64,000 nucleotides of DNA from Eledone cirrhosa. Its lineage: Eukaryota. Position 1 is the first letter of the stretch. Each line of letters starts with the position of its first letter. Positions 320-57,005 of this stretch are shown piece after piece. A model generated the notes under the pieces. The model made no database searches and was not told the DNA's origin. It saw only the letters and a list, made by a program, of their open reading frames with translations. Position numbers and translations under genes: made by a program. The stretch covers positions 367,536,001 through 367,600,000 of the forward strand of contig OZ024741.1 of the NCBI GenBank assembly GCA_964016885.1. Direction: 5' to 3'.

Positions 320-600
320 ATAGCGTAAACCTCTTCAAATGAAGTCGATGTTTATTACGGTATGTCGAATATATTTATCTATAAAACTGCTTATATTGTA
401 TTTTGTCTGATGAAGGCATAGCATATTGTTAATATGATATCCCCGAAATATATATAATGAAATAAATATGGTTTTATAAATATAGTTTTCCATTTATTTA
501 ATATTGTAAATATACTCCAAATATTTGTCGAGTGCTTTTATATCAGTTATAAATATTTACTAGTTGTAACCCAACAATTTTTAAATATAACTTTACATAT
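320..600 (+). mobile_element. Penelope-like element 3' end (pLTR), family A
   Basis: Closely similar to 11985-12225 (TTGAGTGCTTTTATATCAGTTATAAA...GTTGTAACCCAACAATTTT). Contains a hammerhead motif and is flanked by (TA)n. Confidence 0.75.
401..463 (+). ncRNA. Type I hammerhead ribozyme motif (family A)
   Basis: TTTTGT-CTGATGA-[GG..CATATT/AATATG..CC]-GAAA-TATATA-TA-ATGAAA. Core boxes are present and stem III is palindromic. Confidence 0.65.
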
Positions 601-808
601 ATATATACTCTAATTATATATATATATATATATATATATATATATATATATATATATATATATATATATATATATATATAATTAGAGTAAATATTGATGC
701 AATTCAATTCAAGCACTCAACGTACTTTTTCCACATAGGAGTGACGGAGTAAATATCGAATAAGTAAAAGCGAAGTAGTTTCAGATGTTCAAGTACTTTA
801 ATAATAAT

Positions 809-882
809 GCTGTGATATATATTTCAATGACGCCACTTGCCACATTGTTCTGTGTGCGAGTGTCGTGACATCATCAGACAGC
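809..882 (-). ncRNA. Type I hammerhead ribozyme motif (family B, left arm)
   Basis: Reverse complement of 1840-1913 with a few substitutions. Confidence 0.7.
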
Positions 883-1839
883 TTGTTACATAATAAGGTT
901 ATGTTTCCGAGGCAATCCAAGTTGAATCGACATGGGAACGGACGAAGTGTGTGCTTTTGGGTTCTTCATCCGTTCCCCTGTGAGTACCAATTCACCCCCA
1001 CCGCTCTGCGCAGGCGCATGTCCGAAGGAAGTTGACCATTAGCTACCGCAGATATCAACGAAATTCGCTTAGTCAGTTCACCCTCTCAGCCAAACAATGA
1101 CCCATCTAGGCCTGTACCATAGTTTACTGCTACCCGTCCCGTCTGTGGCAGTCAACCGAAAGCCAGAGGCGATGGGAGAGTGTTAGTTTTTACAGTTCAC
1201 AATACTACCTCTCATCAAGCATGGACAGTACGACTGACCATCAACTCCCAAGAGAAAATATACTTAATTCTAGGTATCATGGATTCTCACTTGAAAAATT
1301 TTTTAATTTCTAATTTGTTAATTTTTTAATTGTTTAATTTATAATTTTTTTAAATTGTTTAATTTACAATTTTTGATTTAGGATTTTAATTTTTATTTCC
1401 AACTCTCACTCATAACTTCCAATGTAAAACCATGATACCTAGAATTAAGTATATTTTCTCTTGGGAGTTGATGGTCAGTCGTACTGTCCATGCTTGGTGA
1501 GAGGTAGTATTGTGAACTGTAAAAACTAACACTCTCCCATCCCCTCTAGCTTTCGGTTGACTGCCACAGACAGTGGTAGCAGTAAACTATGGTACAGGCC
1601 TATGGTACAGGCCTAAATGGGTCATTGTTTGGCTGAGAGGGTGAACTGACTAAGCGAATTTCGTTGATATCTGCGGTAGCTAATGGTCAACTTCCTTCGG
1701 ACATGCGCCTGCGCAGAGCGGTGGGGGTGAATTGGTACTCACAGGGGAACGGATGAAGAACCCAAAAGCACACACTTCGTCCGTTCCCATATCGATTCAA
1801 CTTGGATTGCCTCGGAAACATAACCTTATTATGTAACAA

Positions 1840-52895: not shown

Positions 52896-53860
52896 CTAGC
52901 AGAAAACCACCCGGTGGGCGGTTTTCTGCTAGAAAATCTAGTGTATATACTGATATTGTTGAGATTTGGATGAGAAATGTTTTCGGCACCACATGTTCAC
53001 CGTCTCTCGGTGTGTCTTTTATGCATGTATAAATGTATATGTTATCTATACGGTGAAATCTTTGAAATAAATATATGTTAAAACGAAAAAGGAGAAAATA
53101 AATAATTGGCGGTTAGAAAAAAATATTCCTATGAAATTTTAATCATTCCATTAGGTGTGAATAAGGAAATATTTTTTTATTGTCAAAACAAATGTTCAAA
53201 AGTTAAACTTCAATTTTTTGAATTATTTCCAATTTTTTCATGAAATTGAACACTGGACATTGGCTGCTGGAAATGGAAATTAAATCGTATTTAATTGTAT
53301 TTAAATTTCTAACCTTATTTTATTATTTATATTTTTTCAATAAGAAATAAAAAAAACAACAAAAAAAAATGAAGAAAAAAATTGAACAAATCAAACGTAG
53401 GTTATGGAACTGCGCAATCTGATTAATAAATTACCTCATCAGCAGCAACCTTCTTCAAATGGTCCTTATTATCAGCAGCAACAACCACAAATTCAATGGC
53501 AACTTTCTTCAAATGGTCCTTATTATCAGCAGCAACAACCACAAATTCAATGGCAACCTTCTTCGCATGGTGTCAAGTCAGAACCGCCTCGAACTGGTTA
53601 CTTCTGGCTTGTGCAAGGTGTCTCTATAGCAACCAGCGATTCCCTCGGCCTCAGTGACCAAAGTCAGTGGAGAGGGGAAGGTAATATTTCTGTAGCACGT
53701 GTTTTAGCGTCTATTCACTCTCTCTCTCTCTCCTTCTCTCCCTCCCGCTATCCCCCTCTCGTAGTCTGTCTCTTTCTTTCACTCTCACTCTCTCTCTACG
53801 CACGTGTTTCCACTGTCGGACAGACAGACAGAGAAATTGGTGGTTATATATATAAGTAGA
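52896..53860 (-). mobile_element. Second non-autonomous Helitron, directly adjacent
   Basis: Starts TCTACTTATA and ends in the hairpin CTAGCAGAAAACC..GGTTTTCTGCTAG. Same end type as 17526. Confidence 0.65.
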
Positions 53861-55769
53861 TATATAGTTTATATATTATATATATATAATATATATAGTT
53901 TATATATATATATATATATATATATATATATATAGACACACACGCGCGAGCACACACATCAGACGGTGAAGTAATGCAGTAGGCGTTTCAGACCCTTCCA
54001 CCGCGACACAAGAGCTACTCAGTACCACCGATTTAGGCGACAAAACTCTCGCACAGCAGCACGATCTTAGTGACCCTGATGTTGTGACACCGTCGACTTC
54101 AATACGTCAGAACAGCATAAAATTTGTTGAGGCTGATGTTGTGGCTCCGAGCGAGATGTCTACATCCACCTCAATATATCAAGCGCACCATTCATCTTCT
54201 CTTTTAAGCCAGATGTAATGACTCACTATATACTTAATGAAAATCAAGGTTGTTATTCCAATTCCCTCATTAATCTCAACTGGACTTGATATTTGCTCTT
54301 TAAACTCTGCTGTTGGTGATCGAACTTTGTGGAGAAAAATATCTCATGTTGATGCGCAGTCTGTAACTGGCGGAGTTTAGCGTCAAGAAGAAAAAAGGTG
54401 ACTCACTTTCTCAGCTGCCCCCGATAATGCCCTCGAAAGATGTTTCCTTTTTTTGAAAGGGCCAACATTGTAACATATTCTCAATGTGAATCTCCTTGAG
54501 AACTACGTTGTGGAATGTTCAGCCACTTGCACGTTAATTTCGTGAGCAAGTTGTTCCGCTGTTGATCGCATTAACAGCAACACTCGTCGTTGTTACCGAT
54601 GGAGCTCCAACACACACACACACACACACACAGGGCATCTACCTACCTTCGTTACCAGGAAGTGTAGTTTTTTTTTATTTCTTTGTTTATTTTGATGTTT
54701 GTTATAACATTCTGCACATGTCAAATGTTCACATTTGTCTTCCGTGGTAGAGACAGGCCTGGCTGAGGTTCGGTGTTCGATCCCATTGTATAACATCTTA
54801 GGCTGTCTTTACTCTTTTGAATACAATTGGATAGAAATCCATGCTATATAGAGAGGGATGGAAATACTACTCCACCTCTCACTCCATATACCCCTCTCTC
54901 TAACTAACTAAAACTTTTCTAGGTGTTTTTGTTTGTTGTCTACCGTTGACATCTGGCTCACTCACCAACGACTCCCTTTTCCGAAATTGAAGGCGGTGAA
55001 GAAGGGAGTTACAGATAAGCACCTTTTAGCCGTTTAAATGTATAGAGAAGCACCGCCAAGAAATTTTTTTTCCTGTTTTTTTCGTGTGTTTTCAACTACT
55101 GCTCGCAATTGCCTTTTTTTCCTGAAAACAGAATGGAGAGGGGTGTACGTCAACAACTATTCAGATACTGCCATATTTGCGCTACAAAAATTGAATATGA
55201 CCGACGAAGTGTCCGACTTCCAACACGGTCAATATATCATTAGTTGAGAGGTGGGGTGAGTAGTTTACTCTCGGATTTTCACAGCCTCTGAGATTTCTTC
55301 AGTGGGATTTTTTTTTCTTTTCTAATTTTTTTTTTTTTTTAGTTTGTTTTCGACCGATCTGACACCCGGCTCACTGGTTAACGACTCCTTTTACCAAAAA
55401 TGGAGGCAGGAAGCGAAGGGCATCCTCGGAGTAACAGATAAGTACCGCTCAGCCGTTTGAATTTATAGAAAAGCACCTGCTGGGGATTGCGTAGAAATCT
55501 TTTTTCCTAGGTTTTTTCATGTTTTCAATTAATCTGACCTCCGACATGCTCCCAAGAATGAATATGTAAACAATAGTGAAAGAACAGCTTATCAGATTCT
55601 TGCTCTCAACATGGATAATGGAGTTATGTAATATAATTTTCCAGTTCGAGTATTGTACAAGGTTTCAAGAATTCGCGGAATAACTTAGTATAAAATATTG
55701 TACGAGGAAAAAGAGGAATGAAGTGAGGAGAAATTTGAAGACCGATTTATTTGATTAAATAATATAACA

Positions 55770-57005
55770 CGTGGAAATGAAAAAAACTGTACGACTCTCC
55801 TATTCATCTACGGGTAACCTGGAAAACTTCATAGCAGAATTAAACAATAAACGCCTCCGCAACCACAATAATAGTATGGGAACCTCAACTCGAGGGACTA
55901 TCCTGTCTTCTCAGCCTACTACACTCTACCAAGCCAATAATATTAAAAACGACAGCTTGAATAACAAACATATATACATATCACAACCCGTTCGCGCATC
56001 TACCATTACCCTAAATATCATGACGAAAAAAAGAACCTAACCGACCTGCACTATTTCAATGTAACTGCAGACAGACCAATAGATTCCCCTTATCGGGTAG
56101 ATGTGTGAATAACAACAACGTATACCAGTGCAAAATTACATCAAGCCTAGGGACATACAAAAATGTGGGGGGGGGGGGGCACATCTAACTTTTTAAGAAA
56201 AGATTGTATGTGCACATCCACTCTTTTAAAAATCTGGAGCTTCGCTAATCTACCACGTTAGCTAAAGAAATATGAGACTTAAAGCAAGAAAAGGTAGTGT
56301 AAGTGTTGTCGTGGTCACGTCGACGCTTTGCTCGCTCCTATCGACATGAAAGAAAGGATTGTGATCTTTGTGGTACGGAATGATGGAAATTATGACCGGG
56401 AAAAATTTATTGAACTTTAGTCGGGACAGAATATTTAATTGTAAACATAAATACCTAAAAACGTTCTTTAGATATAGTCCAAGCTAACCTATGATTTGAT
56501 CTCATAACTCTACATCAATTTTCTTACGAACTGCATCTCTTTTGACTGGCTGATTCTCATGACAAAGAAGACTGGCGCCAAATGTAATATTTCAATATCT
56601 GTGACCATGAATGGTTCCTTTTTTCTCTGGTGTTCACCCTCTCGTCCATAAATCAAACTGTTAGTTTGGAATGGGTTTCACGTCTAGATTCTTTTCATGA
56701 CAACAGCCACTCGCATTTCTAAAACGTTGCCATGAATACTAGAAGCCCATTAACTATTATCCGCTTCGCTTCCTCCTCCTTCCCTTTCTATATAAATATA
56801 CTTAAAAAATATTTAATTCATTTATCTCTGACGATTTGCCGAATACGGATATAATGCGAGTGAGTGAATAGAAAACATATTCCTATACAGCTCTTGTAGA
56901 TGATTATTTGGCCGGTAATGAAACACGTGCTAGATTATTTAATCAAATAAATCTATATTCAAATTTCTCCTCACTTCATGCCTTTTTTACCGAATACAAT
57001 GTTTT
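55770..57005 (+). mobile_element. Degenerate PLE 3' half (linker, GIY-YIG, possible decayed hammerhead 56824-56935)
   Basis: TVRLSYSSTGNLENFI, PLSGRCV..VYQCKI, FKKRLYVHIHSFK, STTLAK and CDLC. Confidence 0.75.

Follow-up and report, generated by a model that had tools for sequence, protein, structure and literature searches.

Minimal hammerhead motifs of Penelope-like elements, probably stacked by insertion at TA microsatellites, in the genome of Eledone cirrhosa

The window analysed here is a stretch of 64 kb from Eledone cirrhosa (positions 367,536,001-367,600,000 of contig OZ024741.1, in the 3.0 Gb assembly GCA_964016885.1). It contains 13 hammerhead ribozyme motifs. A first-pass annotation had read it as a ribozyme-dense cluster in which any transcript on either strand would be cut repeatedly. 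Our conclusion differs. With high probability, the motifs are type I hammerheads of the minimal kind and belong to the pseudo-long terminal repeats (pLTRs) of Penelope-like elements (PLEs). The elements would be mostly truncated and piled up by insertion into TA microsatellites, and most of the motifs are predicted to be silent in read-through RNA.

The motifs are real. A type I descriptor (CUGANGA or UUGANAA, stem II, GAAA, palindromic helix III, UH, stem I) recovers all 13 sites of the first-pass annotation, whose coordinates deviate by no more than about 2 nt from the low end of the respective motif, and in the whole window it adds one weak extra at 58729. Block-wise dinucleotide shuffles (100 of them) contain on average 0.2 motifs per window, two at most; with a strict descriptor 10 real motifs stand against 0.03 in shuffles. 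The conserved core C3-U4-G5-A6-N7-G8-A9, G12-A13-A14, A15.1-U16.1 and H17 with 3-8 pairing is present at every site. The 3-8 pair is C3-G8 in nine motifs and U3-A8 in four, the UUGAAAA sites being U3-A8 compensatory cores. Variant hammerheads, announced alongside the intact ones, exist as well: a one-mismatch scan adds 13833(+) and 56828-56935(+), compared to none in six shuffles, and a decayed family B copy is located at 33097. The Infernal-type check via Rfam was negative. Hammerhead_1 (RF00163) scores 16.7 bits at 2933-3008, below the gathering cut-off of 34, and among the 150 of 364 window matches listed there is no hammerhead; those listed are microsatellite and hairpin artefacts. Standard annotation would not reveal such motifs, as Rfam misses them.

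Genome-wide, motifs were counted in a grid of 100 tiles of 10 kb, placed at round coordinates and weighted to the four largest chromosomes. In these tiles (1 Mb) real cores have 88 matches, scrambled cores 2 and 2, and cores with a mismatched 3-8 pair 5. At N7 all four bases occur freely (T 48, A 17, C 15, G 8); 73 motifs have C-G as 3-8 pair and 15 have U-A. When 16 rows of family A-type motifs are aligned, 88% of the cells are paired, versus 36-55% in slid controls; double changes number 25 versus 10.4 after shuffling, and 8 of the 11 stem II pairs show them. Stem covariation across genomic copies, a check named by the first-pass annotation, was thus found for family A and its relatives, to which the analysis applies; the fetched copies of families B-F are near-identical. 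In our numbering only 22 of the 88 grid motifs have G-C as their first stem II pair (U-U 23, C-A 17, A-U 13), and U-U and C-A pairs are fixed by family. Non-standard 10.1-11.1 pairs may be on record already in Lunse et al. 2017. Stem II reaches 84-88 nt in families H and J. An extra base after A9 was noted in PLE hammerheads (PMC4209133) and may absorb part of the excess of non-G-C first pairs. Taken together, the conservation pattern argues that the motifs are selected ribozymes at the level of the family, selection having acted on the parent elements and not on the inserted copies, because four of the 13 differ from their genomic relatives in ways which weaken stems. The changes affect stem II alone at 877 and 32709, stem II together with the palindrome at 6890, and the palindrome plus the first stem II pair at 48498.

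The carriers of the motifs were traced in sibling loci fetched elsewhere in the same genome (L-numbers). Full-length family A copies (L187, L189) have a 749-aa open reading frame (ORF) with reverse transcriptase (RT) and GIY-YIG endonuclease (EN) and a motif on both sides. The family E copy L271 has an intact 829-aa ORF of Hydra type between two motifs. Flanking motifs and covarying stems agree with the earlier assignment to minimal type I hammerheads of PLE pLTRs which need dimers. Read by eye in these three loci, the A and E ORFs possess DKT, RWR in place of RWK, a CxCX5C linker, CxxC-E-N-CxH and, at the C-terminus, a GIY-YIG domain; CCHH is absent. In family C, L278 and L202 have a 3' region which is collinear between a Hydra-like ORF and the motif; L273 has the same ORF and 3' region; only RT and EN parts of this ORF were observed. 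ORFs near the family B loci L180 and L273 were considered as family B ORFs and dropped, as they belong to family C. The family D motif is positioned about 1.1 kb behind a Neptune-type endonuclease, with a collinear 3' region in several loci. The family D ORFs, all of them broken, show GLKF and a C-X4-CxxC linker before the C-terminal GIY-YIG (CGRSNCGTC in L325, variants in L018 and L312). In family H an EN fragment precedes the motif.

Families A and E share with the Hydra clade as described by Craig et al. (2021, PMC8557442) the DKT and RWK-like motifs, the linker, the CxxC-E-N-CxH array, the missing CCHH, the hammerheads and the (TA)n targets. They differ in being abundant and young, and their units including untranslated regions (UTRs) reach 3.7-4.5 kb, versus "generally <3 kb" in that source, which describes few families outside Cnidaria. 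Family D resembles the Neptune clade in GLKF and linker; its U3-A8 core and 13-nt stem II-loop set it apart. Homologues of the family A protein are 28-43% identical and for the most part unnamed; the only named ones, 2 of 52 matches, are from Argonauta hians. For the endonuclease all 150 scored matches are 94-100% identical, from 50,018 first-look candidates. PLEs are abundant and active in Octopus vulgaris; the accessible part of that paper makes no mention of ribozymes (PMC13282606).

Clustering at 80% sorts the 13 motifs into six sequence families, A to F. The number rises to eight only when the decayed variants 13833 (J) and 56828 (H) are added. Of the proposal of at least eight unrelated PLE families, the several families remain; the number does not hold for the listed motifs, nor are all families unrelated. 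The proteins of A, C, and E are 36-45% identical. B and F have a common stem I and TATATA palindrome and, judged by these, are probably related; A also has a TATATA palindrome. Self-BLAST shows that three motif pairs are the two inverted arms of a single insertion, which reduces 13 motifs to about 10 insertions, and the eleven motifs of the first 12.1 kb, a count which the analysis confirms, to 8 insertions from 4 families. All families are dispersed repeats, matched by all 40 scored candidates (best hits, not copy numbers). The window copies are 95-99% identical to dispersed siblings, i.e., they are young insertions. For the decayed J motif, 3 of 11 fetched loci hold an intact relative; for the decayed H motif the figure is 7 of 19.

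The cluster is only mildly unusual. The background is 8.8 motifs per 100 kb (bootstrap 6.1-12; 88 per Mb, shuffles 1.2 per Mb), and the window has 20 per 100 kb, i.e., 2.3 times as many. Resampling independent tiles yields a probability of about 0.06 for at least 13 motifs, probably an underestimate because neighbouring tiles are correlated. The 100 kb on either side have 12 and 11 motifs, and beyond 12.1 kb the window has 2 motifs in 52 kb. Ribozyme-dense is thus overstated for the window as a whole and appropriate for its first 10 kb, a top-1% tile and a true local peak; the sole grid tile with at least nine motifs, a tandem array, holds 10. The local peak probably arises because the elements insert into (TA)n tracts. 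Of 74 grid motifs, 53 (72%) have a (TA)6 in the 400 nt downstream, while at random points the share is 23%; TA tracts and motifs per tile are correlated (rho 0.36, p 0.001). The first 10-kb tile has 16 TA tracts, the mean being 9.8, and each of the ten PLE pieces found in the first 12.9 kb has its end no more than 21 nt from a TA tract. An insertion would end in TA tracts into which the next could insert, and a local stack would result. An inverted same-family partner accompanies 27 of the 88 grid motifs. TA targeting and inverted 5' copies of Hydra elements have been reported (PMC8557442); TA targeting by Neptune elements is published also.

Would a crossing transcript be cut? Probably little, according to the folding predictions. 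As a hairpin, helix III has a predicted energy of 0.0 kcal/mol in all 13 motifs, i.e., no monomer fold; as a self-duplex it reaches -2.3 to -11.2 kcal/mol in 12, the exception being 48498 (+0.9). Hence each motif needs a partner, in the same RNA or in trans. Inverted repeats hold six of the 13 motifs, including all three of the minus strand. On either strand the predicted folds place 3640/3718 in a long duplex of about -245 kcal/mol and 877/1845 in one of about -950 kcal/mol; the 10114/12041 arms (163 nt at 99%) are predicted at -233 kcal/mol. For the inverted-arm pairs the antisense arm is transcribed first in both directions. Free of inverted arms on the plus strand are the C motifs 2938/9553, the D motifs 6890/7602, and singletons. 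Minimal PLE hammerheads were reported to have no activity as monomers and low activity as dimers (PMC4209133). For an Anolis element the accessible text describes cleavage as dispensable in vitro and finds no RNA-seq ends at the site (PMC11167929). The claim that any transcript is cut repeatedly is therefore not supported: all motifs need a partner, and nearly half are predicted to be buried in double-stranded RNA. In an intact tandem element, as published PLE work suggests, two copies would pair through the palindromic helix III and would cut the precursor about 100-430 nt upstream of the (TA)n which ends each copy. The frequent inverted 5' arm, a known insertion product, would pair with the ribozyme.

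Several points weigh against this interpretation. The first 10 kb with 9 motifs of 4 families exceed 99 of 100 tiles in count and 100 of 100 in family number, and the boundaries of the ten PLE pieces were drawn by eye. The sequestration is predicted for equilibrium, and the 10114/12041 arms are 1.8 kb apart. Two of five covariation measures are weak (21 of 500 and 446 of 500 shuffles), and the rows were chosen partly from descriptor hits. Neither for B (45 search loci and three longer stretches) nor for F was a linked ORF found, so the PLE origin of these two rests on motif, tail and TA context. Pfam assigned no family to the 749-aa ORF of family A. The assignment of A and E, and in part C, to the Hydra clade and of D to the Neptune clade is a proposal from motifs read by eye.

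Chance matches in AT-rich, repeat-rich DNA are a negligible explanation: TATATA palindromes are indeed common in the window and Rfam scores stay below threshold, yet shuffled windows and scrambled or mismatched cores (2-5 versus 88) yield next to nothing, and the motifs reside in pLTRs of full-length elements. The locus could also be a working cleavage zone in which same-strand or cross-family dimers cut read-through RNA repeatedly and thereby end transcription or destabilise an intron. Nine motifs in 10 kb would suit such a role, as would the pairs which are free on the plus strand, namely C 2938/9553, with a helix III duplex of -11.2 kcal/mol, and D 6890/7602, with 712 nt between them; mixed dimers are conceivable through the TATATA palindrome common to A, B and F or the stem I of B and F. 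We consider this very unlikely, however, since one D partner (6890) carries damage, 6.6 kb separate the two C motifs, all minus-strand motifs sit in inverted repeats, the copies are young insertions, no host exon was recognised in the 57 unique frames examined bar one sub-threshold RING match, and published dimer activity is low.

The remaining alternative has somewhat more in its favour, though we still regard it as improbable. B, F and J could be non-autonomous, retrozyme-like derivatives which replicate via small circular RNAs with PLE enzymes. In its favour are that no ORF was found for B or F, that tandem B copies about 1.26-1.29 kb apart exist in L281 and L282, and that other families form arrays with 430-556 nt spacing elsewhere in the genome (L041, L090, L099); further, a preprint derives animal retrozymes from pLTRs (10.64898/2026.07.22.740005). 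Against it, no window copy forms a head-to-tail array. The B copies are truncated to differing extents at the 5' side of an extended non-coding stretch which resembles the long 3' UTRs of A, C, and D, so that an ORF may be located outside the fetched 1.5-kb flanks. Truncated PLE insertions at TA microsatellites thus remain the preferred reading. The features of the window are collected in Table 1.

Table 1. Hammerhead motifs and associated PLE coding pieces in the 64-kb window (strand as given; cuts are predictions)
Feature	Positions	Strand	Details
Family A hammerhead	399-464	+	core 407, predicted cut after 456; solo pLTR fragment 355-593; A10.1-C11.1 mismatch
Family B hammerhead	809-882	-	core 877, predicted cut 814; inverted arm of insertion 682-2165; damaged stem II
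Family B hammerhead	1840-1913	+	core 1845, predicted cut 1908; U10.1-U11.1; inside 94% inverted repeat 792-1285/1427-1930
Family C hammerhead	2933-3008	+	core 2938, predicted cut 3003; CCATGG palindrome; weak Rfam Hammerhead_1 match
Family D hammerhead, U3-A8	3607-3644	-	core 3640, predicted cut 3611; arm of 99% palindrome 3531-3827
Family D hammerhead, U3-A8	3714-3751	+	core 3718, predicted cut 3747; second arm of palindrome 3531-3827
Family D hammerhead	6887-6922	+	core 6890; mutated stem II and palindrome
Family D hammerhead	7599-7634	+	core 7602, predicted cut 7631; commonest genomic form
Family C hammerhead	9550-9622	+	core 9553, predicted cut 9619
Family A hammerhead	10057-10122	-	core 10114, predicted cut 10065; inverted 5' arm of insertion 10008-12230
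GIY-YIG endonuclease, C-terminal part	10168-10548	+	5'-truncated Hydra-type element; 96% identical to end of full-length 749-aa RT-EN ORF of family A
Family A hammerhead	12033-12098	+	core 12041, predicted cut 12090; 3' pLTR, then ~140-nt tail and (TA)n
Decayed family J hammerhead	13828-13940	+	core CTGGTGA, 84-nt stem II; relatives: CTGATGA and CTCGAG
Family E hammerhead	32706-32749	+	core 32709, predicted cut 32746; one stem II substitution; full-length Hydra-type sibling in L271
Decayed family B-type copy	33092-33166	+	U3 with G8; stem I mismatch
Family F hammerhead	48492-48552	+	core 48498, predicted cut 48546; palindrome and 10.1 mutated; no ORF linked
Degenerate Hydra-like GIY-YIG fragment	56060-56380	+	part of family H insertion 55687-57010
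Family H hammerhead	56824-56935	+	core 56828, 85-nt stem II; C in place of U16.1; predicted inactive

Three further candidates were not accepted as hammerheads. The site at 58729 is weak, with an imperfect 9-nt helix III. The one at 62834 is without U16.1 and stem I and has no sibling among the fetched loci. A hammerhead-like string at 8695-8730 (family G) was dropped; it is without CUGANGA, and GAAA is absent in most relatives. A broken PLE coding fragment at 48869-49976 (+) is family G-like (42-47%), and a broken Hydra-like PLE coding fragment lies about 325-1100 nt upstream of the window (-). The element at 8423-9354 (-) and 12282-12930, also present in L280, L272, and L069, has a 3' end conserved across subfamilies which may hold another structure.

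Repeats occupy about 75% of the window and 95% of its first 12.3 kb. In the non-repeat DNA of the window no host exon was recognised among 57 unique frames of at least 55 aa; short exons would escape. A RING-like match in non-repeat DNA at 54635-54808 (-) stays below threshold (19.9 bits, cut-off 21) and may be chance or a small exon. An intact 1201-aa frame at 41099-44704 (-) with AP endonuclease, RT, and C2H2 fingers is probably an RTE-type long interspersed nuclear element (LINE); twister ribozymes have been reported at RTE 5' ends (PMC7761336). A 514-aa frame at 33919-35460 (-) looks by eye like the C-terminal part of an L1/Tx1-type LINE, and self-BLAST finds a partial second copy at 17050-17242. 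A non-coding repeat with (TACA)n on its flanks is present in six copies, 94-98% identical (4288-4893, 23544-24036, 28052-29360, 29925-30244, 37707-38281). It would be a second microsatellite-targeting family. Broken RT frames with a zf-RVT match, which we take to be of an R2/NeSL-like clade, adjoin copies of it at 23945-26399 and 38260-39048.

Much of the locus has precedents. Minimal hammerheads, the U3-A8 variant, family diversity, opposite-strand pairs, and the dimer model were all published for PLEs (Cervera and de la Pena 2014, PMC4209133). The present motifs share with those the type I topology, a helix III that is short and palindromic, a short helix I, the U3-A8 core, and pairs on opposite strands; in both, a genome holds several families, and most copies are solo and truncated. 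They differ in a far higher estimated number, in few G-C first stem II pairs, and in the 84-88 nt stem II of H and J. Retrozymes of animals are tandem units of 170-400 nt (PMC7229834; preprint 10.64898/2026.07.22.740005). Common to these non-LTR retrozymes and our motifs are type I hammerheads in repeats and very high copy numbers; for the retrozymes, dimer cleavage is known from amphibians. The window copies, in contrast, are dispersed or inverted pLTR remnants of mixed families, not head-to-tail short units. Elsewhere in the genome tandem hammerhead arrays exist at L099 4212-9766 (-) (10 copies), L041, L090, and L097, with spacings of about 556, 468, and 430 nt; by their arrangement they are retrozyme candidates.

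What is new is the scale; the locus itself adds little, motif type, U3-A8 and inverted pairs being published. From the 100 tiles the genome total is extrapolated to about 260,000 motifs (180,000-360,000), a count whose order of magnitude is probably correct; together, the 88 motifs of the grid and the 13 of the window form 36 clusters. The largest published count we found is 126,247 motifs in the axolotl (PMC7229834), followed by about 9,000 in Xenopus tropicalis and about 4,000 in the coelacanth (PMC4209133), all obtained with descriptors other than ours. A comparable cephalopod count was not found in the accessible literature; the supplements of PMC8557442 list Hydra families and may include cephalopods. 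There is a small chance that this is the most hammerhead-rich animal genome counted, with motifs of dozens of families, many of them in young Hydra-clade elements, in which neighbours of the same or of different families within long introns dimerise and cut pre-mRNA and inverted arms act as an off switch; of this, the cutting in vivo is the less certain part. With about 9 intact-core hammerheads per 100 kb, and with Hydra-type elements that are young and of full length, the genome supplies numerous natural stem variants and intact elements for the question of an in vivo role. It also suits asking whether insertions that carry a ribozyme are eliminated from the sense strand of introns.

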